Shown here in pieces: positions 20,097 through 56,224 of a stretch of DNA of 64,000 bases (the stretch's first letter is position 1; each line of letters begins with the position of its first letter). The position numbers and the translations under genes were made by a program. Source of the stretch: an uncultured Candidatus Saccharibacteria bacterium (GTDB lineage Bacteria > Patescibacteriota > Minisyncoccia > Phycocordibacterales > CSBR16-119); NCBI GenBank assembly GCA_964490365.1, contig CAZBAG010000002.1, positions 73,486-137,485 on the forward strand, in the 5' to 3' direction. The notes under the pieces were generated by a model that saw only the letters and a program-made list of their open reading frames with translations, did not search any database and was not told the DNA's origin.

Positions 20097-20325
20097 GTAT
20101 AATCTAATCTTCTAAATTACTAATAGTCTGATTTTAGGTGTTTTGGGCGCTTTTCGCAAGAAACAAAAATACTTAGCAAGGTTTGATGGTTTTCTCGGTA
20201 GATCGGTCACGAGTTACTAATTCCCTTCGGTCATAAGTACTCTCGACCCCGTCTCGCGATGCTCACAGGTTCGCATAACGCTCCGACCTTCGATTCCTAC
20301 ACGAAAGCAAAACTGTTTGCTTTCT

Positions 20326-20380
20326 CGAGAGGACAAAATGAAAAACCGCCTTACGGGCGGTTTTTCATTTTGTCCTCTCG
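20326..20380 (-). terminator. 25-bp perfect inverted repeat forming the tRNA-Lys trailer hairpin/terminator
   Basis: cgagaggacaaaatgaaaaaccgcc ttac ggcggtttttcattttgtcctctcg. One arm contains the tRNA-Lys 3' acceptor strand, and the other arm is an inverted copy of that 3' end. Confidence 0.55.
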
Positions 20381-20445
20381 GTAGGAATCGAACCTACGAC
20401 CGTCTCCTTAAAAGGGAGCTGCTCTACCAACTGAGCTACGAGAGG
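20373..20445 (-). tRNA. tRNA-Lys (anticodon TTT)
   Basis: Manual cloverleaf: acceptor cctctcg/cgagagg, D-arm gctcagttggtagagc, anticodon loop cttttaa, T-arm gtaggttcgattcctac. No CCA is encoded. Confidence 0.8.
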
Positions 20446-24823: not shown

Positions 24824-24920
24824 TGTGCTCTCGGTAGGAATCGCCTCTCCCTTTGGTCGAAACGCACCATTTTTATAATCGCTTCGCTCTTTAAAAATGG
24901 GCGCCCTTGGTTCGATTCCT
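24824..24920 (-). repeat. tRNA-Arg-associated element copy 1: 20-nt direct duplicate of the tRNA 3' end plus an 84-bp conserved core
   Basis: tgtgctctcggtaggaatcg (24824-24843) repeats the tRNA-Arg 3' end at 24955-24974 with one mismatch. Bases 24837-24920 are 100% identical to 28901-28984. The core contains an imperfect hairpin (gcaccatttttat...aaaaatgggcgc) and terminal inverted ggaatcg/cgattcc. Confidence 0.7.
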
Positions 24921-24956
24921 ACCGTAAGTATAAAACTTACTTTGTTCATCCATCTG

Positions 24957-25028
24957 TGCTCTCGGCAGGAATCGAACCTACATTTTAACTTCCGCAAAGT
25001 CATGTCCTATCCATTGAACGACGAGAGC
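24957..25028 (-). tRNA. tRNA-Arg (anticodon reads GCG)
   Basis: Manual cloverleaf: acceptor gctctcg/cgagagc, D-arm gttcaatggataggac, anticodon stem tgact/agtta with loop ttgcgga, T-arm gtaggttcgattcctgc. Confidence 0.65.
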
Positions 25029-28378: not shown

Positions 28379-28732
28379 ATGGAACAAGGCCCTAATCCAA
28401 TACAAAGAATACGTGAACGTATTTCTCCTGAAACAAAACAGCGGGTTGCTTTAAGTATAGAAGAAGCCAACGAACGAAAGAAAAAAGTTGATTCTCTCAT
28501 GGAAAAAATACAAGAAAAGCAAATGCAAAAAGTTCATGTAAATTTTATTCTGTTGAATTCTGGATTACCTCATGACTTTATTCAAGGATACTTCACGGGC
28601 GATGAAGACTATCTGTATACCACTGACTACGACTTAAATAATCTGAAGATTATAGAAGAAGGGGTTGATAATTTTGATATAAAAAGAGACGAAGGTAAGA
28701 TGTTTCCAACTTCAGGCCATCACCATAATTAA
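28379..28732 (+). CDS. hypothetical protein
   Basis: 117 aa with no TM helix and no recognisable motif. C-terminal His run. Confidence 0.3.
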   Translation: MEQGPNPIQRIRERISPETKQRVALSIEEANERKKKVDSLMEKIQEKQMQKVHVNFILLNSGLPHDFIQGYFTGDEDYLYTTDYDLNNLKIIEEGVDNFDIKRDEGKMFPTSGHHHN

Positions 28733-28737
28733 ACTAA

Positions 28738-28763
28738 AAGACTCGCATATGCGAGTCTTTTAG
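28738..28763. terminator. bidirectional terminator
   Basis: aaaagactcgcatatgcgagtctttt. Confidence 0.6.
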
Positions 28764-28766
28764 TTT

Positions 28767-28842
28767 TGGTGGGCGATAGAGGACTTGAACCTCTGACCTT
28801 TCCAGTGTAAATGGATTGCTCTACCAACTGAGCTAATCGCCC
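28767..28842 (-). tRNA. tRNA-Val (anticodon TAC), CCA encoded
   Basis: gggcgattagctcagttggtagagca...tttacac...ggttcaagtcctctatcgcccacca. 76 nt. Confidence 0.8.
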
Positions 28843-28885: not shown

Positions 28886-28984
28886 CTTGTCCCCTCGGCA
28901 GGAATCGCCTCTCCCTTTGGTCGAAACGCACCATTTTTATAATCGCTTCGCTCTTTAAAAATGGGCGCCCTTGGTTCGATTCCT
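28886..28984 (-). repeat. tRNA-Arg-associated element copy 2: 22-nt direct duplicate of the tRNA-Arg(TCT) 3' end plus the same 84-bp core
   Basis: cttgtcccctcggcaggaatcg at 28886-28907 is identical to 29009-29030. Bases 28901-28984 are identical to 24837-24920. Confidence 0.7.
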
Positions 28985-29012
28985 TTCGAATGTTTGTAAC
29001 ACATCGGCCTTG

Positions 29013-29084
29013 TCCCCTCGGCAGGAATCGAACCTACATCGAGACCTTAGAAGAGTCCTGTTCTATCCATTGAACTACGAGGGG
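29013..29084 (-). tRNA. tRNA-Arg (anticodon TCT)
   Basis: Acceptor cccctcg/cgagggg, D-arm gttcaatggatagaac, anticodon loop cttctaa, T-arm gtaggttcgattcctgc. Confidence 0.8.
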
Positions 29085-29148
29085 TGAACGTTTGAAATAT
29101 ACCATACATGACCAAAATTTCAAGTCTAAATAGGTAGAGTGTCTTTCA

Positions 29149-29907
29149 ATGAGTATTTTGGTAGAATTGAAATATATGGAAAAAGTTGGAAAAAGTTTTG
29201 AGGTTATAAAGAAATTTATTGAAAATACTGATCCACGAGAATTGGCAGAATGTATTAAAACCCTAGAGGGTAGAGCAGAGCAGATAGGTTGGGGTAAAAA
29301 TGCAGATATTTATGCTGTCGGAGATAAGGAATATAAAAGACTTTGCGCGAAAAAAATAAAAGAAAAACCATTCTTACTAGATAATCGTCCAGAAGAAGAA
29401 TTTGCATATCAGCAAAAAGTTAGAGCTCTTGGTGTAAAAACCCCTGCGAGTGTTGCTGTTATTAAAAATATTACAACAGGAGAAGAGTACATCATTATGG
29501 AAAGAATCATAGGTGTGTCTATTGGTGATATTGTAAGCTCTGAGATTAATGCTCCTATTCCTGAAGAATATGATCATGATAGGTTTTTTGAAAAACTAAA
29601 GCAAGATTTAAAAAAAATGCATGAGGATGGGATATATCACAGAGACCTTCATATGGGTAATGTGATGATTGACGAAAAAGGGGATCCTGTAATTATTGAT
29701 TTTGGCAGTGCCACTATTGCCTTTTCTGGTGACGATGATAAGTATTTACAGACTCAGGTTAAACAATATAACAAAGAAAAAGATCGATATGAAGTTGTGA
29801 GCGGGCGTTACCTAGATGACGATAACGGATATGAAAGCTTAAGAAGTTCGATGAATCGACATCTTAATCCAAATAGTATTAATGTTGACAAAAACTGGAA
29901 GTTATGA
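29149..29907 (+). CDS. small protein kinase-like fold protein (atypical/eukaryotic-like kinase; RIO/Bud32/Kdo-kinase-like size)
   Basis: Gly-rich loop IGWGKNADIYAV, conserved Lys region LCAKKIK, catalytic loop HRDLHMGNVMID, and DFG as IIDFGSA. 252 aa. Confidence 0.5.
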   Translation: MSILVELKYMEKVGKSFEVIKKFIENTDPRELAECIKTLEGRAEQIGWGKNADIYAVGDKEYKRLCAKKIKEKPFLLDNRPEEEFAYQQKVRALGVKTPASVAVIKNITTGEEYIIMERIIGVSIGDIVSSEINAPIPEEYDHDRFFEKLKQDLKKMHEDGIYHRDLHMGNVMIDEKGDPVIIDFGSATIAFSGDDDKYLQTQVKQYNKEKDRYEVVSGRYLDDDNGYESLRSSMNRHLNPNSINVDKNWKL

Positions 29908-29935
29908 TTATATTTTAAATAAATAAAAAGAGTAT

Positions 29936-30145
29936 ATGGAAATCCAATCAACATTCAGTGAAGAATTTAAAGAGGTTGTTAGAAAAAAGGCAACAGATTT
30001 AATTTCTTCCAATCAAGAAAAGGGTGAACTAGAAGATGATTTCTATGGTCCGCTTATGATCTTCATAGATAAACGACCCAAAACCATTCTCTTTTCTGCT
30101 AAGATAGATGATCATCAGATCTACGTGGGAGGAGAACAAGAATAA
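29936..30145 (+). CDS. small hypothetical protein
   Basis: 69-aa ORF between the kinase-like gene and the HIT gene. Confidence 0.25.
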   Translation: MEIQSTFSEEFKEVVRKKATDLISSNQEKGELEDDFYGPLMIFIDKRPKTILFSAKIDDHQIYVGGEQE

Positions 30146-30195
30146 GACCACCTTTAGAATTGCCGTAAGTTTATAACTTGCGGTAATTTTATTTT

Positions 30196-30594
30196 TTAAA
30201 TTAAATCTCTTTTTATATTCTCTGCTTGCTTGATTAACGTTTCATCGCTTACTTCTCCGCCCATGTGGATTTCAAGCTTCTCACCTTTTCGAACGGGATA
30301 CATTTTTATATGAACATGAGGCACATGAAAACCCTCTACTAACATGCAGACTCTTTCAGCATTTAAAGCTGTGTGCATTGCAGAACCAATTTTTTTTGCA
30401 AGGTTAAAAAGATATGAGTATGTTGTATCGTCTAAATCAAACACGTAGTCTGTTGGTGTTTTTGGTATTACAAGCACCTGTCCCGAAATAGCTGGGAATT
30501 TATCCATAATAGCGATAGCTTGCTCATCTTCATATACAAATACTGCAGGTATTTCTCGATCAATAATCTTTTCAAATATTGTTTTCATACTCAT
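30196..30594 (-). CDS. HIT family (histidine triad) nucleotide hydrolase
   Basis: HVPHVHIKMYP histidine triad. 132 aa, HinT-like. Confidence 0.75.
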   Translation of the reverse strand: MSMKTIFEKIIDREIPAVFVYEDEQAIAIMDKFPAISGQVLVIPKTPTDYVFDLDDTTYSYLFNLAKKIGSAMHTALNAERVCMLVEGFHVPHVHIKMYPVRKGEKLEIHMGGEVSDETLIKQAENIKRDLI

Positions 30595-38015: not shown

Positions 38016-38097
38016 GCCCAGGTGTTGAAACTGGTAGACAAGCTACCTTGAGGTGGTAGTGCTGTGAGGCGTGGAGGTTCGAGTCCTCTCCTGGGCA
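38016..38097 (+). tRNA. tRNA-Leu (anticodon GAG), long variable arm
   Basis: Acceptor gcccagg/cctgggc, anticodon stem ctacc/ggtag with loop ttgaggt, variable arm gctgtgaggcgt, T-arm ggaggttcgagtcctct. 82 nt. Confidence 0.8.
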
Positions 38098-38104
38098 CAA
38101 AAAA

Positions 38105-38136
38105 TATCCCGAATTTTTTCGGGTTTTATTTTTTGG
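38105..38136 (+). terminator. terminator after tRNA-Leu
   Basis: cccgaattttttcggg followed by a T run. Confidence 0.5.
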
Positions 38137-38219
38137 TGAGAGGACTCGAAGACCTTTTGAGCTTTTTTGTGAGTGAAACGAACACAAGAGCCAAAAGGTG
38201 TACTGCTCCTGTAAGGAGA

Positions 38220-38239
38220 GAGTCCTCTCCTGGGCACAA
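38220..38239 (+). repeat. 20-nt direct duplicate of the tRNA-Leu 3' end
   Basis: gagtcctctcctgggcacaa is identical to 38081-38100, the 3' end of tRNA-Leu plus 3 nt of trailer. An inverted T-arm-like fragment (gagaggactcgaagacc) lies between the two copies. Confidence 0.65.
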
Positions 38240-47878: not shown

Positions 47879-50800
47879 TTGTATATGAAGTTACAAAAAG
47901 CATTCTTTCTTGTTCTCGGCCTCGCCTTTTTGGTGTCGCTGGGTTCTTTAGTTTCTGGGGCACCTGGTCAAAAAGCTCAAGTAGTTAGTGGACAAAACTC
48001 TATTGGTGTTACATCACCATCAACAAGCACTATTGTAGCAGCAGGGCAATCTGTTCCTACAACATGTCAGTATGCTACGGCGTCTGGATTCTCAGTAACG
48101 ACACTTCAGTGGTCAGCTGAGACGACAAATGATCTCGAAACACCTATTACAAGTATGGTTCCAACTGGAGCAACAGGATCTGAAACAAGAAATATCGTAG
48201 TTCCTGTTGGCGGCACTGGCTCTGTCATCTTAAAGTGTTATGCTGAATACGCAAATGCTTCTACAGGTGTTGAAATGCAAATTGCATCTCAAAGAGTTCT
48301 CAATATCTCTGGAACTGTAACACCTCCAACAAACGACACCACAGCACCTACTGTTCCATCAGGACTTACTGTAACTGCAACAAGTTACTCAAGTCTTACA
48401 CTTAACTGGACAGCATCCACAGATGCAGGTGGTGTAGCTTCATACGAGATCTTCCGAAACAATGGAGGGTCAACAGCAATCAATACAACAACTCCTATCG
48501 CTGTAGTTAATCATCCAACAACTACATATCTAAACTCAGGTCTTCTTGCGAATAAGACATATAAATATAGAATACGAGCAAAGGATACAGCGGGAAACGT
48601 TTCATCACTTACTTCAACAGTAAGTCGAACAACTCTCGCTATTGGTATACCAACAAACGTTACCATTACCAATCCAACAACTTCATCTCTTACGGTAAAC
48701 TGGACAGCGCCAACAAGTGGAGCATACGAATATGCAATTTTTGCAAACAACGGTGGTACCACAGCAATCAATACAACAACTCCTATTGCAACAGTTCCAG
48801 CGGGTGTAACAACATACACACGAACAGGACTTACTCCTGCAACTTCATATAAATTTAGAGTAGCAGCCCTTACTGATGCGGGTAGTCGATCATCTCTTAC
48901 AACTGTGAAAACAGGCGTGACAGCAAGTAGTGGACCATCTGACACCACCGCCCCAACAGTAACCATCACAGCTCCAACTGCTTCACAAGTTCTTGCAGCA
49001 GGTACTACTTCTACAAACCTTACGGTTACCACAAACGAGAATGCAACCTGTAAATGGTCAACAACCAACACAGCATACGCAAGTATGACCAACACCATGA
49101 CAGGATCTGGTTCTACTTCACACTCAGCTTCTCAAACAGGTCTTACCAATGGAACATCATACACACGATACGTATCATGTGCTGATACAGCAGGTAATGC
49201 TTCGACAACACAAAGTAGAGCGTTTAGTGTGGGATCTCCAGTTGCTGATACTACTGCACCAACATTCTCTGGTCTTGCAGCAACAGCTTCAACGGTAAAC
49301 TCAGTTACTCTTGATTGGTCAGATTCTACAGATCCTTCATCTCCGGTGACCTATAAGATTTACCGAAGCACAACTCAAACAGGAACATTTACTCAAGTTG
49401 GAGGAACTCTTTCAACAAGTGCATTTGTTGATTCTGGTCTTACTGCTTCAACAACATATTGGTATAAAGGAGTTGCTTGTGATGCGGTCAACAATTGTTC
49501 AGCTCAAAGTGCGGCGGTAAGCCGAGCAACAACTGCTGCTCCTGACACCACCGCCCCAACAGTAACCATCACAGCTCCAACTGCTTCACAAGTTCTTGCA
49601 GCAGGTACTACTTCTACAAACCTTACGGTTACCACAAACGAGAATGCAACCTGTAAATGGTCAACAACCAACACAGCATACGCAAGTATGACCAACACCA
49701 TGACAGGATCTGGTTCTACTTCACACTCAGCTTCTCAAACAGGTCTTACCAATGGAACATCATACACACGATACGTATCATGTGCTGATACAGCAGGTAA
49801 TGCTTCGACAACACAAAGTAGAGCGTTTAGTGTGGCTCTTGCAGCGCCAAGTGCACCAACCGGTGTAACAGTTGGCTCTCCAACAACTTCATCTCTTGTT
49901 GTAAACTGGACAGCAGTAACTAGTGCAACATCATACAAAGTCTATCGAGTTGCTTCAAACGGTCTTGTTGATGGGACTATTCCAGCGCTTACAGTTGCAA
50001 CACCAAACGTATCAACAACCGTTACAGGGCTTTCATCTGGTACCGCATACCGATTCCTCGTAACAGCAGTGAACTCTGTAGGCGAATCAACACTAACTCC
50101 AAGTGGAACAAACAATGCAAGTGCAACAACATCTTCACCACAAATTACTGTTTCATCACTTGAACTTGTTCGAACAAACGGAACAGTTGTTGAATCACTC
50201 GATGGAGGAGAATCAATTAACGTTGGAACTCAAAATGGAGGAGTGGGTCCAAACATTTCAGTACGAGCAAGCACAAACCCAGCTACTCCAGGAAGTGTTG
50301 TATTCTCTCTCCAAAAACCAAACAGTACAACACACACACTTACTGAAAACTCTGCGCCATATACGTTGTTCGGCGACACCAGTGACACAGTGATTGTTGC
50401 TTGGCAAAACCTTCTTCCAGGAGGATATACACTAACTGTAACTCCATACGCAGGTACAAATGGAACAGGACAAGTTGGAGTACCACGAACAGTGCAATTC
50501 CAAATTGTAAACAATGATGACACCACAGCACCAGTAAACCCAACAAACGTTGCGATTACGTATCGATCAGCATCTCAACTTAAAGTTGGATGGACTAATT
50601 CAACATCATCTGATGTTGCTTCATATCGAGTCTACCGAGACAACGTTTCTATGGGTGTTGTGAATCATCCAACAAATACATTTACTGATACATCAGTAAA
50701 TGCGACAGGAAACTATGTATACAAAGCAGTAGCAATTGACACATCAAACAATGAAGCAACTCTTCCAGGAACTGGTGTAACTTCGCCAACACTTTCTACA

Positions 50801-53800
50801 GCCTTCGTACTTAACAATCAAGTAGAAACAAATACAAGTGCTCAGGTTAAATCAGCACCTGAATCAACAACTGTTGCTGGTACACAAGCAACAGGTTCTA
50901 TTGGAACAATAACAAACGGACCAGTATGGGTAACAGGCGGTGTTCAACACTGGTATGTTAACTTTAACTCAGGTACTGATGGTTGGGTAAACCAAGCTAA
51001 TCTTGACCTCTATACAGCACCAACAACTGATACTACTGCGCCAGCATATCCAGGAGGAAATGCAGCATTTACCGTAACAGCAGGATCACAAACATCACTC
51101 GTCCTTGATTGGGCAGATGCAACAGACGCAACAGCTCCAGTAACATATAAAGTTTCAAGAAGTACTTCTGCAAGTGGACCATTTACTCAAGTTTCTCCAG
51201 CATTCACAGCAAGTACCTTTAACGACAACAACGCTGGTCTTACCGCAGGATCAACACGATACTACCAATTGATTGCTTGTGACGCCGTAACGCCAACTCA
51301 AAACTGTACAACACCAATTGTTCAAGGGGGTACAACTTCACCTGTTGTTGATACGACTGCTCCAACAGTAACGATTTCAGCGCCAACAGCAAATGAAGTA
51401 TTCCCATCAGGAACAACCAACGCAACACTTACTGTTTCTACGAACGAACCAGCAACCTGTAAATGGTCAACAACCAACACAGCATACGCAAGTATGACCA
51501 ACACCATGACAGGATCTGGTTCTACTTCACACTCAGCTTCTCAAACAGGTCTTACCAATGGAACATCATACACACGATACGTATCATGTGCTGATACAGC
51601 AGGTAATGCTTCGACAACACAAAGTAGAGCGTTTAGTGTGGCCGTGTTTGTTCCTGACACAACAGCTCCAGCCGGAACCTTAAACCCAGTAGTAGGTTCT
51701 CCTACATCAAGTAGTCTCACTGTTTCTTGGTCAGCTCTTACCGATTCAACAACACCAATTAACTACCGACTCTACCGAAGCACAACTCAAACAGGAACAT
51801 TTACACAAGTTGGTGGAAATATTACTGGTACATCATATGTTGACACTGGACGATCTGCTTCAACAACATATTGGTATAAAGTAGATGCCTGTGATAGTGC
51901 TACGACACCAAACTGTACTTCTCAATCAGCGGCAGTAAGTGGAACAACTGTTTCAGAGGGAACTGAACCACCAATTACTACAACATGTCCTACAATGCCT
52001 TCAATTACTGGAGACATTCACACACAAAAAGCAGTACAACTATGTGCAGAAATTTCAAACAACCCAAATAGAATCACTCTTAAGTGGGCAAACGTTTCAG
52101 GAAGAACGCAAACAAGTGCAACAATCTCAAGAAAAGCTGGCCTAGCTTCAACCTCATTCACTTCACTAGGAACAGTATCAGGTAATGCAACAAGTTACGT
52201 TGATAACACTGCGGTTGCTGGAACATACTATGAATACAAGGTTCAAGTAAACTCAAATGCATACGGATATATTGCTGCTGGAATCAATGTTCCTCAAGAA
52301 TCATATCGAGGTAAAATGGTTCTTGTTATCGACAACACATTCCAAACATCACTCGCATCACAAATTAGCACACTCGTAGATGACCTTACAGCTGATAAAT
52401 GGGTGGTAATACCAAAATATGTAAGTCGAAGTGATACACCAACAACAGTTCGAAATGCTATTAAAGCAGAATACGATGCCGATCCAACAAACGTAAAGGC
52501 CGTATATCTTCTTGGACACGTTCCTGTTCCACGAGCTGGAAACTTCAATGGTGATGGACATGGATCACGTGCGCTTTCAACTGATACATATTATGGAGAA
52601 ATGACTCAAGAGTTCAATAAACTCTCAAATGGATGTACACCATATACAGAAATCTCAAACATACCAGCTGGCCCGTCTGATTGGAGTCTATCGCCGATAA
52701 ACTACTCTCAATGGCAAAGTCCATATCAAGTGAGTTCATTTATGCCAATTCCACCAACGACTCATAAATTCTGTCTTACAAGTGGTCAAACTCCTTCTGC
52801 TCTTGAACTGCAAGTTGGACGAGTAGATATGTTTGCGCTTACAGTCTATAGTCAATCAGAACAAACACTACTTTCAAACTATCTAACAAAAGCAAGAGAA
52901 TTTAAGAGAAAAGTGTGGACACCGGTAAAAAGAGCATTTATCCGAGATGGACTTATCTATCAAGGATATGATGGAGGTAAGTTCGTATGGGGGATGTTGC
53001 CATCTATTGTTGGACCACTTGTCGGATCAAACATTACGGCAGATAACGGTGTAAGTAGTATGGCCGCAATGAACACGGCAACATCAAGTGCAAATACATA
53101 CTTGTTTACGTCGTTACGATACGGAGGTACAACAACTGCTGTTGACTATGCTGGAGGTACGGCTCTTGGTAGTAGTTATACACATGCATCATCAGGATTT
53201 GAAATGGGTGGTGTGTTTAATCAATATGTAGCAAGTTATATTCCAGAATGGGGAGACTATAATGCACTTCTTCGAGCCGCTCTTGCTGATGGTAAGGCTC
53301 TCGCTTCTATGCATGGTGATGACCGAAACTGGTACTTGCATTCAATGGGTCTTGGTCAAAATATTGGTTACGCAGGTAAGATGACTGTAAATAACACAAC
53401 CTCACTATATGTTCCAGTCGGAGGTATCTGGGATAGCAACTATGGCGGTAATGGGTTTATGTCACTTCTTGGCGATCCATCACTACGAGCTGAATATGTT
53501 GCTCCGGTTTCTTCTCTCACACTTTCAAACAGCTCTGGTAAGACAGCAATGTCATGGCCAGCAGCTTCAAGTGCTACTCATGGGTATAATGTATACAAAA
53601 TAACTTCAGGTGGTATTACAAAACTTAATGGAGCACCGATCACAGGAACAAGTTACACTTCAACAGATAACTATACTTCAGGAAACAAATACATGGTTAC
53701 TGCAGTAAAACTTGAAACAACAAACGGTGGAACATATTACAATGAATCGCTTGGTGCAATTGCAACAGTCGGTGGGGTGGCCTCAGATACGACGGCCCCC

Positions 53801-56224
53801 TCAACGCCGTCTGGGCTTGTTACCAACGGCTCAACTTCAAACTCACTTAGTTTCTCTTGGACAGCGTCATCTGACGCTGTTGGAGTTACAGGGTACAAAG
53901 TGTATCGAAGTTCTTCCCTAACTGGTACCTATAGTCAGGTGGCAACAGGAATTACAACAACAAGCTATACCGATTCTGGTCTTAGTGCGAGTACAACCTA
54001 CTACTACAAAGTGTCTGCATACGATGCTGCCGCAAATGACTCTGCTCAATCTTCAGCAATTACACTTACGACATCTGCTGCAGGTAGTGGCGGAGGTCAA
54101 GTACTTGGTATTAATGGACCAGTCGGTCCAAGCCTTACTGATAACGCTTCGGTCTGTACAAACCCATCTGGTGGAACTATTTACTACGTTGATTCAATGT
54201 CAGGGAATGATTCAAACAGTGGCACTTCAACAACTACTGCATGGAAAACAATAGGTAGACTTAACACAGGTGCCTCATCTTTCTCTCCGGGAACAATGAC
54301 TTGTTTCAAGCGAGGTGGTATTTATCCAGGAACAATTACTCTTCCTGTGTCAGGAACACAATCAGCACCAATTCGATTTGATGCGTATGGATCTGGTAAT
54401 GCGCCAATTATCTCTGGATTCGACCAAATTACAACACCATGGGTAGCTCACTCAGGTAATATCTGGAAAACAACCATCGCCACAGGTCTAACACCAAAAC
54501 AACTTCAAGTAAGTGGTACTGTGCAAAAACTTGCACGTCATCCAAACACTGGATGGCTTCAAACAACAAATAAAACCGCAACAACCACCTCAGGATCTTG
54601 GATCGGTACTCAAACAGCAGGATCTCTTGTTGGTGCAAATATTGTACAGTTAGCAAATCCTTGGGCATGGTTCCGAGATAAAGTGACAGCACAATCTGGG
54701 TCAACAGTAACGTTTGCTTCTCCGGGTGCAGCAATTTTTACAGGCGAGCAAGCTGGTTGGTCATATGGTTTTGAAAATAAACTATCATTCTTAGATTCTG
54801 CGGGTGAATGGTACTACAATGATGTGACGGGAGAGCTCTATCTTTGGGCACCAAGTAGTGCAAACCCAAATAGCTTGTTGGTAGAAATTTCTTCTCGAAA
54901 TCTTGGAATTGTTCTACGAGAAAATATGCCAGATGCTGATATTCAGTTTAAAAATCTTGTTTTCGAAGGTTACAGTACGGCAATTAGTCAAGATGGAATG
55001 CAAACACGAGTGCTCTATGAAAATCTTGAGTTGAGAAAATCTGGACGAGCACTCCTCATGTGGACACCAAGTGAAAATATTAACGACGCAAACACTATTC
55101 GAAATAACTATATTCACGATATTCAACAAGATGCAGTTGCACTCTTCAGTGGAAATGGTCACACATTTGAAGGAAACGTGGTGAAAGATGTTGGGGTTGA
55201 TCCTTGGCTTGCTGCAAACTCTACAACATGGGGAATGATCGGGCTCAACACAGGAACATCAAACCAAATTGTTCGAAGAAATAAATTTGAAAATATTGGG
55301 TACACAGGAATCTTTGTAAACGGTAGTGGTCTTGTTGAAGAAAATTATCTTGAAAACATGCTGGTATCAACAACGGATGGTGCAGGTATTATGTGGAACG
55401 TAGCAGACGGACTTACCGTTCGAAAGAATATTGTAAAAGATGTTCACTCAAACGTAGATAACATGCCTCTGCCATACCCAACCTACAGTCCAATTGGTAA
55501 TGCATTCTACTACGGAGACGACACGATTAAGAACACAACGGTAGAAGGTAACATTGCAATTGATATTGAAAATGATGCATACGTTATGGATCACGGTGCA
55601 GAATATACAAACAACAGAACTATTAACAATATCGGATTTGATTTCGGACGAGGAGGACTCTTCTTCTCAGATGCTTCAATTTATCGAGACATTGGTCCTT
55701 CATATGGTCAATCATATATGCAACTCTGTCTTCCATATGAAAACAGTACATGTTTCAGACCACAATTTAACGATGTGGTAACAGGAAATAAGTTGTACGG
55801 TATAAAACCAGATGGATTTAATAGTGCAGCAAACTATGGAACAGGTAGTAGAGGAATTTACATGTTCTACGTATACAGTAACGGCAGTGGTGCGCACGTA
55901 GATTACGGCACCATCAACAATAACTACTACTATAACCGTTTAAGTGCTGAACGAGTAACAACACGCTTGCCAGTTATCGGTCCATTTACTACAATAGACC
56001 ACACTTTAGCAGAATGGAGGACTGCTTCAGGGGAAGATATGAACTCAACAGAATCAAGTTATCCTGCATCGAGTACACGACCAGAACCAAGTATCTTCTA
56101 TAACGCAACAAGTGCTCCAATCACACAATCTGTTAACGGGTGTACATCAACAAACACACCTCTAACAGGAACACAAACTATCCAGCCATTCACCGCATTA
56201 GTAGTAGAGTATGGTAATTGTTAA
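47879..56224 (+). CDS. giant (2781 aa) secreted surface protein: FN3-like repeats, thrice-repeated Cys-containing Ig-like module, C-terminal right-handed beta-helix region
   Basis: Signal peptide. Multiple modules of about 100 aa with the FN3 pattern (TSSLTVNWTA...YKYRI.A.D.AGN). Three copies of the module DTTAPTVTITAPTASQVL...ATCKWSTTNTAYASMTNTMTGSGSTSHSASQTGLTNGTSYTRYVSCADTAGNAS. The C-terminal 700 aa has parallel beta-helix repeat signatures (NNYIHDIQQDAVALFSGNGHTFEGNVVKDVG). Confidence 0.8.
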   Translation: MYMKLQKAFFLVLGLAFLVSLGSLVSGAPGQKAQVVSGQNSIGVTSPSTSTIVAAGQSVPTTCQYATASGFSVTTLQWSAETTNDLETPITSMVPTGATGSETRNIVVPVGGTGSVILKCYAEYANASTGVEMQIASQRVLNISGTVTPPTNDTTAPTVPSGLTVTATSYSSLTLNWTASTDAGGVASYEIFRNNGGSTAINTTTPIAVVNHPTTTYLNSGLLANKTYKYRIRAKDTAGNVSSLTSTVSRTTLAIGIPTNVTITNPTTSSLTVNWTAPTSGAYEYAIFANNGGTTAINTTTPIATVPAGVTTYTRTGLTPATSYKFRVAALTDAGSRSSLTTVKTGVTASSGPSDTTAPTVTITAPTASQVLAAGTTSTNLTVTTNENATCKWSTTNTAYASMTNTMTGSGSTSHSASQTGLTNGTSYTRYVSCADTAGNASTTQSRAFSVGSPVADTTAPTFSGLAATASTVNSVTLDWSDSTDPSSPVTYKIYRSTTQTGTFTQVGGTLSTSAFVDSGLTASTTYWYKGVACDAVNNCSAQSAAVSRATTAAPDTTAPTVTITAPTASQVLAAGTTSTNLTVTTNENATCKWSTTNTAYASMTNTMTGSGSTSHSASQTGLTNGTSYTRYVSCADTAGNASTTQSRAFSVALAAPSAPTGVTVGSPTTSSLVVNWTAVTSATSYKVYRVASNGLVDGTIPALTVATPNVSTTVTGLSSGTAYRFLVTAVNSVGESTLTPSGTNNASATTSSPQITVSSLELVRTNGTVVESLDGGESINVGTQNGGVGPNISVRASTNPATPGSVVFSLQKPNSTTHTLTENSAPYTLFGDTSDTVIVAWQNLLPGGYTLTVTPYAGTNGTGQVGVPRTVQFQIVNNDDTTAPVNPTNVAITYRSASQLKVGWTNSTSSDVASYRVYRDNVSMGVVNHPTNTFTDTSVNATGNYVYKAVAIDTSNNEATLPGTGVTSPTLSTAFVLNNQVETNTSAQVKSAPESTTVAGTQATGSIGTITNGPVWVTGGVQHWYVNFNSGTDGWVNQANLDLYTAPTTDTTAPAYPGGNAAFTVTAGSQTSLVLDWADATDATAPVTYKVSRSTSASGPFTQVSPAFTASTFNDNNAGLTAGSTRYYQLIACDAVTPTQNCTTPIVQGGTTSPVVDTTAPTVTISAPTANEVFPSGTTNATLTVSTNEPATCKWSTTNTAYASMTNTMTGSGSTSHSASQTGLTNGTSYTRYVSCADTAGNASTTQSRAFSVAVFVPDTTAPAGTLNPVVGSPTSSSLTVSWSALTDSTTPINYRLYRSTTQTGTFTQVGGNITGTSYVDTGRSASTTYWYKVDACDSATTPNCTSQSAAVSGTTVSEGTEPPITTTCPTMPSITGDIHTQKAVQLCAEISNNPNRITLKWANVSGRTQTSATISRKAGLASTSFTSLGTVSGNATSYVDNTAVAGTYYEYKVQVNSNAYGYIAAGINVPQESYRGKMVLVIDNTFQTSLASQISTLVDDLTADKWVVIPKYVSRSDTPTTVRNAIKAEYDADPTNVKAVYLLGHVPVPRAGNFNGDGHGSRALSTDTYYGEMTQEFNKLSNGCTPYTEISNIPAGPSDWSLSPINYSQWQSPYQVSSFMPIPPTTHKFCLTSGQTPSALELQVGRVDMFALTVYSQSEQTLLSNYLTKAREFKRKVWTPVKRAFIRDGLIYQGYDGGKFVWGMLPSIVGPLVGSNITADNGVSSMAAMNTATSSANTYLFTSLRYGGTTTAVDYAGGTALGSSYTHASSGFEMGGVFNQYVASYIPEWGDYNALLRAALADGKALASMHGDDRNWYLHSMGLGQNIGYAGKMTVNNTTSLYVPVGGIWDSNYGGNGFMSLLGDPSLRAEYVAPVSSLTLSNSSGKTAMSWPAASSATHGYNVYKITSGGITKLNGAPITGTSYTSTDNYTSGNKYMVTAVKLETTNGGTYYNESLGAIATVGGVASDTTAPSTPSGLVTNGSTSNSLSFSWTASSDAVGVTGYKVYRSSSLTGTYSQVATGITTTSYTDSGLSASTTYYYKVSAYDAAANDSAQSSAITLTTSAAGSGGGQVLGINGPVGPSLTDNASVCTNPSGGTIYYVDSMSGNDSNSGTSTTTAWKTIGRLNTGASSFSPGTMTCFKRGGIYPGTITLPVSGTQSAPIRFDAYGSGNAPIISGFDQITTPWVAHSGNIWKTTIATGLTPKQLQVSGTVQKLARHPNTGWLQTTNKTATTTSGSWIGTQTAGSLVGANIVQLANPWAWFRDKVTAQSGSTVTFASPGAAIFTGEQAGWSYGFENKLSFLDSAGEWYYNDVTGELYLWAPSSANPNSLLVEISSRNLGIVLRENMPDADIQFKNLVFEGYSTAISQDGMQTRVLYENLELRKSGRALLMWTPSENINDANTIRNNYIHDIQQDAVALFSGNGHTFEGNVVKDVGVDPWLAANSTTWGMIGLNTGTSNQIVRRNKFENIGYTGIFVNGSGLVEENYLENMLVSTTDGAGIMWNVADGLTVRKNIVKDVHSNVDNMPLPYPTYSPIGNAFYYGDDTIKNTTVEGNIAIDIENDAYVMDHGAEYTNNRTINNIGFDFGRGGLFFSDASIYRDIGPSYGQSYMQLCLPYENSTCFRPQFNDVVTGNKLYGIKPDGFNSAANYGTGSRGIYMFYVYSNGSGAHVDYGTINNNYYYNRLSAERVTTRLPVIGPFTTIDHTLAEWRTASGEDMNSTESSYPASSTRPEPSIFYNATSAPITQSVNGCTSTNTPLTGTQTIQPFTALVVEYGNC
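48941..49232 (+). repeat. intragenic ~292-bp direct repeat (copy A) inside the giant gene
   Basis: Identical to 49544-49835 (copy B, offset 603 bp). The 3' 190 bp is also identical to 51453-51641 (copy C). Confidence 0.85.

Follow-up and report, generated by a model that had tools for sequence, protein, structure and literature searches.

A 123-bp insertion behind tRNA-Arg(tct) and an apparently undescribed family of structured mini-elements at tRNA T-loops in Patescibacteria

The locus at tRNA-Arg(tct)

The DNA under study, termed the window, is a stretch of 64,000 nucleotides from an uncultured Candidatus Saccharibacteria bacterium. The window is a Patescibacteria (Paceibacterota) genome segment low in GC, and the closest relatives of its RecJ are found in MAGs labelled Paceibacterota or 'Saccharibacteria'. 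Two tRNA genes on the reverse strand, tRNA-Arg(tct) at 29012/29013-29084 and tRNA-Val(tac) at 28767-28842, are located by both ARAGORN and the Rfam tRNA model. The features of the locus, and of related elements elsewhere in the window, are listed in Table 1.

Table 1. Features at and around tRNA-Arg(tct), and the other elements of the window.
Feature	Position	Strand	Basis or remark
Perfect palindrome, 18+18 bp (36 bp)	28731-28766	.	Inverted repeat I7, 100% complementary; adjoins tRNA-Val
tRNA-Val(tac), downstream partner of tRNA-Arg(tct)	28767-28842	-	ARAGORN, Rfam
Distal direct repeat	28886-28907	-	Displaced/duplicated 3' fragment of tRNA-Arg(tct), 22/22 match to 29009-29030; T-loop second half, T-stem 3' strand, acceptor 3' strand, discriminator, CAAG
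Structured core, three-way junction	28899-28985	-	Covariance model R1 96.1 bits, E 6e-21; covariation in relatives
Inverted copy of tRNA T-arm	28973-28989	-	UCGAAAGGAAUCGAACC on tRNA-sense strand; 5' strand of P1
Proximal spacer of insert	28990-29008	-	Diverged between copies 1 and 2
Intact tRNA-Arg(tct)	29013-29084	-	Rfam tRNA 63.8 bits; ARAGORN
Promoter-like site of tRNA-Arg(tct)	29096-29123	-	TTGAAA, 16 nt, TG-TATATT; 10/12 consensus matches
Kinase-like ORF	29149-29907		Pkinase 3.7e-14
69-aa ORF	29936-30145		No Pfam matches
HIT gene	30196-30594	-	
Copy 1, behind tRNA-Arg(gcg) (24957-25028)	24824-24954	-	R1 97.2 bits
Third element, behind tRNA-Leu(gag)	38101-38239	+	Same architecture; weak R1 match, E 0.66
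Fourth element, behind tRNA-Lys(ttt)	20185-20371	-	Different core type; degenerate distal repeat

The sequence CTTGTCCCCTCGGCAGGAATCG occurs twice and exactly, at 28886-28907 and at 29009-29030. The second occurrence is part of the tRNA gene, running from the middle of the T-loop through the T-stem and acceptor strand to the discriminator. It comprises the last 18 nt of tRNA-Arg(tct) followed by the four trailer bases 29009-29012. A 17-mer taken from the tRNA 3' end has no further exact match within the window. The 101 nt between the two repeats are non-coding and hold no credible ORF. The interval 28886-29008 is a 123-bp insertion, consisting of a 101-nt non-coding element and a 22-nt repeat of the target. 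An earlier note on this DNA had described a 22-nt duplicate of the tRNA 3' end, a core and then the intact tRNA, both here (copy 2) and at copy 1, and that order is borne out by the exact repeat and by alignment of the two loci.

At the tRNA-proximal end of the core a 17-nt stretch (inverted repeat I20) copies the T-arm in inverted orientation, with 88% complementarity to the T-loop and T-stem at 29018-29034. Such a copy is found in every member of the family described below. The position of the proximal spacer is occupied, in many relatives, by a bidirectional terminator hairpin.

Promoter-like sites occur directly upstream of both tRNA-Arg genes and none is present within the elements. In the interval between tRNA-Arg(tct) and tRNA-Val neither a promoter-like nor a terminator-like site was found. 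The palindrome next to tRNA-Val is likely to be a bidirectional terminator that closes the Arg-element-Val unit and also a convergent 117-aa gene. From the promoter-like site upstream, the lack of a terminator before tRNA-Val and the palindrome after it, we infer that Arg, element and Val would form one transcript, from which the element RNA would be released by tRNA processing. As tRNA-Val probably follows on this transcript, the element would lie within an Arg-Val tRNA operon, between its two genes.

Empty sites, relatives and the core fold

A RecJ-based scan, using one genome per species, gave 40 Patescibacteria loci. Two of these, L003 and L005, encode a RecJ 81% and 79% identical to that of the window and carry the same tRNA set, Arg-gcg, Ser, Val and Arg-tct. 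Their spacer between tRNA-Arg(tct) and tRNA-Val is element-free and 50-51 nt long; that of the window measures 169 nt. CAAG comes directly after tRNA-Arg(tct) in both relatives, and then a flank collinear with the outer flank of the distal repeat in the window. Because these empty sites are collinear, the difference is a 123-bp indel with the repeat as its ends, representing either a gain in the window or a precise loss in L003 and L005. Two parts of the Islander signature are seen at tRNA-Arg(tct), an intact tRNA with a cognate direct 3' fragment and an empty site bounded at the repeats. At the site orthologous to copy 1, L005 displays a type B element beside the tRNA, then an internally deleted remnant of copy-1 type, from which it follows that copy 1 predates the split from the L005 lineage.

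Copy 1 has the same layout as copy 2, its distal repeat (24824-24843) matching 24955-24974 at 19/20 positions. When the two loci are aligned an 85-nt block, 24836-24920, is 100% identical to 28900-28984. Outside this block the similarity is lower: the tRNA-Arg(gcg) and tRNA-Arg(tct) genes share 78% identity, and the core-to-tRNA spacers have diverged. Identical cores beside diverged spacers are best explained by gene conversion between the copies. A 33-nt core probe matches the window only at 24850-24882 and 28914-28946; the number expected by chance, from 100 shuffles, is 0. In one Logan contig, L138, the common core connects proximal sequence of copy 2 with distal sequence of copy 1; this contig is either an assembly chimera or a recombinant. 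When flanking proteins were used to look up strain variants of copies 1 and 2, every short-read contig was found to end at these loci. The elements explain such breaks in short-read assemblies at tRNA loci of these organisms, and they can give rise to chimeric contigs as well.

The element behind tRNA-Leu(gag) presents, in order, a terminator hairpin, an inverted T-arm copy, the core and a 20-nt repeat (38220-38239, equal to 38081-38100). That behind tRNA-Lys(ttt) forms a long palindrome which includes the tRNA acceptor strand. The window therefore holds four such elements at its seven tRNAs, three on the reverse strand and one on the forward. The window starts with dnaN and the cumulative GC skew rises, so the mix of strands indicates that the polarity of an element follows its tRNA and not replication.

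How widely are such elements distributed? Metagenome contigs were scanned with a pattern made from the core ends, AGGAATCGCCTCTC N45-75 TTCGATTCC. This gave 40 loci, of which 38 share the architecture and two are chance matches in coding sequence. Wherever the contig continues, a tRNA gene is found 31-80 nt beyond the core and on the opposite strand, with a single polarity throughout. Most of the tRNAs are Arg (gcg, ccg or tct), the others being Trp, Gln, Ile and Lys. At most loci, 13-16 of 18 compared positions of the distal repeat are shared with the local tRNA. Repeats range from 14 nt (L099 and L128) to 33 nt (L132) and take in 0-5 bases past the discriminator, once about 15; the inner boundary is fixed and the outer boundary varies. 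The same design with other cores is observed at tRNA-Ser (L003, L094), tRNA-Lys (L094) and tRNA-Gly (L012), as well as at tRNA-Leu and tRNA-Lys in the window. Along the tRNA-sense strand the tRNA is always followed by a spacer, often a bidirectional terminator hairpin, then by the inverted T-arm copy, the core, and a direct repeat starting in the T-loop. The junction falls at T55|C56 in the window Arg copies and in core classes 1 and 2, at C56|G57 in the Leu, Ser and Gly elements and at T59|T60 in type B. All of these junctions lie inside the 7-nt T-loop and identity continues as far as the tRNA 3' end, which corresponds to the class II (T-loop) sublocation.

Other loci give evidence of movement, related types being present or absent at strain level. 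Comparison of L085 with L084, L086, L090 and L091, all with an identical flanking DUF5673-type protein, delimits a type B element of 151 nt with a 16-nt repeat at its boundaries, and L094 is empty. In L116 two different elements stand in tandem behind one tRNA; in tandem arrays the newest copy is the one that adjoins the tRNA. In L003 and L083 type B ends enclose around 1.8 kb encoding a wHTH protein and a cyclodipeptide synthase, the genes being in both orientations. An element occupies the orthologous tRNA-Arg(gcg) beside a DUF5673-type gene in the window and in L099, L102, L104, L115, L117 and L132, with the caveat that these loci were selected by the search pattern. The R1 covariance model detected no additional class 1 copies in 789 kb of sequence from relatives. 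Viral contigs yielded 0 matches in exact-pattern searches, whether made with the core or with a degenerate left-end pattern, and no match to the element was obtained by blastn in phage or plasmid collections. We are confident that the sequence behind tRNA-Arg(tct) is an insertion and a member of this family. A search of the literature found no description of such mini-elements, and these structured units, widespread in Patescibacteria and targeting tRNA T-loops, apparently form a family not described before.

Two classes of core, class 1 with 19 distinct sequences and class 2 with 9, both fold as a three-way junction. In stem P1 (GGAAUCG/CGAUUCC) the inverted T-arm copy is base-paired to the first part of the repeat. 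P2 is a variable hairpin, in copy 2 a long AT-rich one with a GCGAAGC apex. P3 is a hairpin in which, on our reading of the alignments, the conserved UCGA...GAGAGG sequences form a helix with tandem G.A pairs. Compensatory changes are seen at 9 and 11 base pairs in the two classes. Paired cells amount to 96.8% and 94.0%, against 38-54% when the partners are slid. The covariation scores are 0.325 and 0.312 compared to 0.122 in shuffles, with 0/500 shuffles reaching the observed values and slid controls giving ≤0.11. We caution that the invariance of P1 arises partly by construction because the search pattern fixes both ends of the core. In the tRNA-Leu element P1 is GGACUCG/CGAGUCC, which matches its own T-arm.

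Three observations bear on the strand that folds. One G.U pair is retained in 18/19 sequences, several U.G pairs become A.C mismatches if read on the opposite strand, and the summed folding energy is -602 kcal/mol on the tRNA-sense strand versus -490 kcal/mol, the former being favoured in 18/19 sequences. These observations favour the tRNA-sense strand. Opposite the missing T54 and T55, P1 has an AA bulge, and a strand asymmetry is present. A search of Rfam 15 at the gathering score and more permissively (E≤10 on a 501-nt slice, E≤1 on seven related loci), covering the window and the seven loci, matched only tRNAs. A tRNA-like cloverleaf on either strand is unsupported by eye and by ARAGORN. 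Hammerhead, HDV-like and K-turn readings of the UCGA...GAGAGG helix were rejected in a manual check as the defining nucleotides are absent. The covarying three-way junction is a candidate new structured RNA/DNA motif for Rfam-type curation.

Mechanism and alternative explanations

The regenerated tRNA, the displaced fragment, the junction in the T-loop and the position of the newest unit beside the tRNA are the signature of elements integrated in tRNA genes, and a miniature, non-autonomous relative of these, moved in trans, is the most economical reading. Our preferred explanation, which we hold to be somewhat better than evenly supported, is that a non-autonomous miniature mobile element homing to the tRNA T-loop has given rise to the 123-bp insertion, being moved in trans and co-transcribed with the tRNA. 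The enzyme would be encoded elsewhere. It would most likely be a site-specific recombinase exchanging strands in the T-loop, at the 'class II' sublocation of tyrosine integrases, with stem P1 presenting a duplex copy of the target; this mechanism is put forward tentatively. Copy 2 would be transcribed along with tRNA-Arg and tRNA-Val, then freed by tRNA processing. The predicted empty-site junction at tRNA-Arg(tct) is ...AACCGCAAACTTGTCCCCTCGGCAGGAATCGAACCTACAT... and that of the circle, or attP, is ...AAAGGGAGAGGCGATTCCTGCCGAGGGGACAAGGCCGATGTG....

Is a gene for such an enzyme at hand? No integrase, transposase or reverse transcriptase was detected within the elements or beside them, and none among the ORFs of the window, of which 40 of 65 were scanned. 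The search of these ORFs and the two cargo ORFs produced only housekeeping proteins, the wHTH protein and the cyclodipeptide synthase. The integrase gene by which a tRNA island is recognised is thus missing here, the 101-nt insert having no ORF and the 1.8-kb relative no recombinase. Clustering of the ORFs within 4 kb of the 38 elements revealed only syntenic housekeeping neighbours. A cluster of small ORFs, GIY-YIG-like by eye and occurring in two tRNA contexts, was dropped since the one located member is about 2.4 kb from its element.

The earlier note had raised the possibility that the stretch is what remains of an integrated element whose cargo genes persist. In that view a larger island left the repeat and core as its scar, with the kinase-like gene, the small ORF and the HIT gene (29149-30594) as surviving cargo. 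The three genes are present as described, and integration at the tRNA 3' end is upheld by the empty sites of L003 and L005, but the idea of cargo fails. The genes lie 5' of the tRNA, beyond the promoter-like site at 29096-29123, whereas the repeat-bounded insert is on the 3' side (28886-29008); and in L003 the genes for the kinase (76% identical), small ORF, HIT and RecJ follow the window order although the tRNA site is empty. Comparison of relatives over this segment, as that note had suggested, gives a divided answer. The divergent HIT-RecJ pair is kept in 24/40 related Paceibacteria loci, down to 40% RecJ identity, and with such conserved synteny HIT is not part of any islet. The kinase and 69-aa ORF do vary, and this is the observation that speaks for an island. 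They are present in the window, L001/L002 and L003 and missing from the equivalent position in L004, L005, L006 and L037; in L005 a DksA-like gene and a 247-aa gene take their place and the tRNA pair is inverted, and in L004 too other genes stand there. That pattern defines a 1-kb segment variable between genera, but no repeat or att-like boundary linking the kinase and 69-aa ORF to the element was found, and about 40 further tRNA loci have this type of element beside unrelated genes. All three genes, HIT included, are ordinary neighbours, and we consider the scar of a larger island highly improbable. A different proposition is that the element now serves chiefly as a structured RNA with a function in the tRNA transcription unit. 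It might be a spacer or 3'-trailer RNA released by processing, or a module that acts in cis on termination or processing; selection would maintain it, and its mobility would be ancient or incidental. The strong covariation, the conserved junction nucleotides and the G.U and tandem G.A pairs on the transcribed strand would suit this, as would the elements at the orthologous tRNA-Arg(gcg) in several species, the intactness of copy 1 despite its age and the proportion of window tRNAs with an element. However, elements have been lost, deleted or replaced in close relatives (L003, L005, L084, L094), several unrelated core types share one architecture, terminators part many cores from the tRNA, no Rfam family is matched and the syntenic loci were selected by the search pattern itself. 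We judge this explanation unlikely.

A closer contender is true target-site duplication, with staggered cuts in the T-loop and just past the tRNA end, the gap then being filled. The agent could be a DNA transposase or Cas1-like integrase, or the route could be target-primed copying of RNA, as for SINE or R2 elements. By the RNA route, an element landing behind a tRNA gene would be transcribed from the tRNA promoter and trimmed by the tRNA-processing enzymes. Related cores are found behind tRNAs with different acceptor stems, and each repeat fits its own tRNA, trailer bases included. Because the repeats match their own tRNA despite the related cores, true duplication of the target fits better than classic integrase logic, under which the regenerated tRNA 3' end comes from the element. 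The fixed inner and variable outer boundary of the repeats, the conserved fold on the strand transcribed from the tRNA promoter and a polarity that follows the tRNA also favour it, and the 3' end of an element RNA would complement the bottom strand of the target. On the other side, no reverse transcriptase, endonuclease or transposase was found nearby, the strong terminator between tRNA and core in many relatives would block co-transcription, the version with cargo carries genes in both orientations and the terminal inverted repeats expected of a casposon or DDE element are lacking. In addition we know of no prokaryotic system of this kind, nor of a precedent for target duplication by RNA copying. 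We regard target-site duplication as possible but rather doubtful. A double-stranded attP site has no need of covarying hairpins or of conserved G.U and G.A pairs. The covarying strand-specific fold and the repeats fitting the local tRNA make two alternatives conceivable, a folded-strand recombination site or true target duplication, possibly through an RNA intermediate. To take the latter further, we might be dealing with a new class of prokaryotic mobile element, integrase-less, RNA-structured units of approximately 100 nt which home to tRNA T-loops, duplicate the tRNA 3' end and thereby spare the gene, and exploit the tRNA promoter and processing for a transposition intermediate or guide of their own, a speculation on which we place no great weight. 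Such a unit would be akin to a bacterial SINE or R2, or to an RNA scaffold with a target-matching 3' segment serving a recombinase in trans.

The genomes of Patescibacteria are tiny with little spare DNA, yet four of the seven tRNA genes in the window carry a unit. If active, the units would represent a compact and harmless means of inserting DNA at tRNA genes with no enzyme of their own, and would point to an unrecognised recombination activity of host or phage that reads the T-arm. A small cis unit that targets the universal GGTTCGAnTCC could interest those who build insertion tools.

Comparison with known systems

The elements do not have the marks of MITEs, which derive from DDE transposons. 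There are no terminal inverted repeats (compare the start of the spacer with the GAGAGG end), and the direct repeats of 14-33 nt are unlike the short, fixed 2-10 bp of MITEs. The inverted pair that is present consists of the internal T-arm copy and the target repeat, not the element ends. Elements of the IS200/IS605 group create no target repeat, restore no gene and show a bias to the lagging-strand template; PATEs and right-end guide RNAs are associated with them. Like PATEs, the present elements are hairpin-rich, strand-specific and about 100-200 nt long, with a scaffold followed by about 16-22 nt matching the adjacent target. However, a repeat is present here, three of the four window elements are opposite in sense and no Rfam omega-RNA or HEARO match was obtained. 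A lagging-strand mechanism of IS200/IS605 type is disfavoured since the elements occur on both strands, following the tRNA.

Casposons generate a 14-15 bp duplication at the 3' end of a tRNA gene, and CRISPR arrays grow by duplication of a whole repeat, in polar fashion beside the 'leader'. A target at the tRNA gene 3' end, a long duplication and polar addition are points in common with the elements. Against this, the elements have no terminal inverted repeats, their duplication varies in length, no Cas1 gene was seen and they are far smaller than casposons.

CIMEs and satellites, which are non-autonomous derivatives of integrative elements, and Xer-dependent modules (IMEX, such as CTX phage, and pdif) have no recombinase of their own; the enzyme acts in trans on units bounded by recombination sites. 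A folded single strand, with a stem that mimics the duplex target, is the active form of the CTX phage and integron attC sites. The mini-elements likewise appear to be without a recombinase, and P1 could act in the manner of the folded attC or CTX stem. The target differs, being the T-loop of a tRNA and not dif or attI, the R-box GTTRRRY is unmatched (GTTCGAT) and polarity follows the tRNA.

R2 retroelements exploit host RNA genes (PMC3414825). In common with SINEs and R2, the elements lie in or behind a highly transcribed RNA gene with which they would be co-transcribed, would have a structured RNA required in cis, are non-autonomous and show duplications of variable length. They differ in that no reverse transcriptase partner was found near them, an A-rich tail is absent and terminators are often upstream of the core.

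The elements also resemble the islands and prophages that tyrosine integrases insert into tRNA genes, the signature of which is a regenerated tRNA and a displaced fragment (PMC4383910). In phage Ms6 the crossover is in the T-loop and the identity block extends to the tRNA 3' end (PMC1762012). The T-loop is the 'class II' sublocation of these integrases according to Williams (2002), as far as that work is cited in PMC4383910 and PMC1762012. The present elements depart from such islands in being 100-190 nt long with no integrase or ORF, in a core whose fold covaries and is strand-specific, in place of a double-stranded attP with arm sites, and in repeats that fit the acceptor stem of their own tRNA even where cores are closely related, the attP equivalent being without T54, T55 and the 5' strand of the T-stem. 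What is shared is an intact, regenerated tRNA with a direct, displaced 3' fragment, identity that runs from the 7-nt T-loop to or past the tRNA end, a fixed polarity, tandem arrays with the newest member beside the tRNA, and presence or absence exactly at the repeats.

Further elements in the window

Two more elements lie behind tRNA genes in the window, and a longer version of the related type B element, which has another core, was located in relatives (table). The third element has the same architecture as copies 1 and 2, the elements behind tRNA-Arg(gcg) and tRNA-Arg(tct), and consists of a terminator hairpin, an inverted T-arm copy (GGTGAGAGGACTCGAA), a core of three helices with GGAGAG at its end, and a 20-nt repeat (38220-38239, identical to 38081-38100). 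Its P1, the helix formed by the T-arm copy and the start of the repeat, fits the T-arm of tRNA-Leu, reading GAGTCC and not GATTCC. The fourth element differs in its core, and its distal repeat is degenerate; its terminator hairpin is prolonged into the acceptor strand of the tRNA, giving a palindrome of approximately 37 bp.

Coordinates of the additional elements (window positions unless a locus is named)
Element	Position	Strand	Adjacent tRNA gene (5′ of element)
Third element	38101-38239	+	tRNA-Leu(gag), 38016-38098
Fourth element	about 20185-20371	-	tRNA-Lys(ttt), 20372-20445
Type B, 1.8-kb version	L003:407-2238		
Type B, 1.8-kb version	L083:5515-7300		

Elsewhere in the window a single ORF of 2781 aa (47879-56224, +) lies in a stretch of higher GC content and negative GC skew. 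A partial gene for the DNA polymerase III beta subunit, dnaN, occupies the extreme start (88-720, +), suggesting that the replication origin is positioned directly to the left.

Cargo of the type B element

Two proteins are encoded by the 1.8-kb version. One, of 281 aa, is a wHTH protein; the other is a cyclodipeptide synthase (Pfam CDPS, 3.9e-29) and so belongs to an enzyme family annotated as using aminoacyl-tRNAs. At L083 the tRNA gene and island are inverted and the distal end is missing.

Variation in relatives and at contig ends

Two strains (L084:5472-5723 and L090:1065-1316) carry an identical flanking protein and tRNA, and five A<->G changes separate them. These all fall within a 45-nt element remnant behind tRNA-Arg(gcg), with none in the other ~200 nt, and form a strand-coordinated cluster. 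At L105:223-392 the whole tRNA-Arg(ccg) gene is duplicated in tandem as a 97-nt unit directly upstream of an element. L005:8204-9545 has tRNA-Arg(tct) and tRNA-Val as an inverted pair with respect to RecJ; the position of the kinase and small ORF is taken there by two other genes, one for a DksA/TraR-like zinc-finger protein and one for a protein of 247 aa.

Short-read contigs of the window organism all end at the tRNA loci of copies 1 and 2. One Logan contig (SRR10036065_49420; L138:1-180) links the 3′ end of tRNA-Arg(tct) and the copy-2 spacer, through the common 85-nt core, to the distal repeat of copy 1, followed by the 193-aa gene found downstream of that copy. Either assembly has produced a chimera here, or the contig represents a recombinant from which 4 kb has been lost.

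A recurrent motif

The motif GAGCGAAGCGA (tRNA-sense strand) occurs at 24883-24893 and 28947-28957. Its sites are of three kinds: the apex of the AT-rich hairpin P2, several spacer starts directly 3′ of the tRNA, and the type B distal junction. Among related loci it recurs in many spacers and at the type B junction. It includes GCGAAGC, known as a very stable DNA mini-hairpin.
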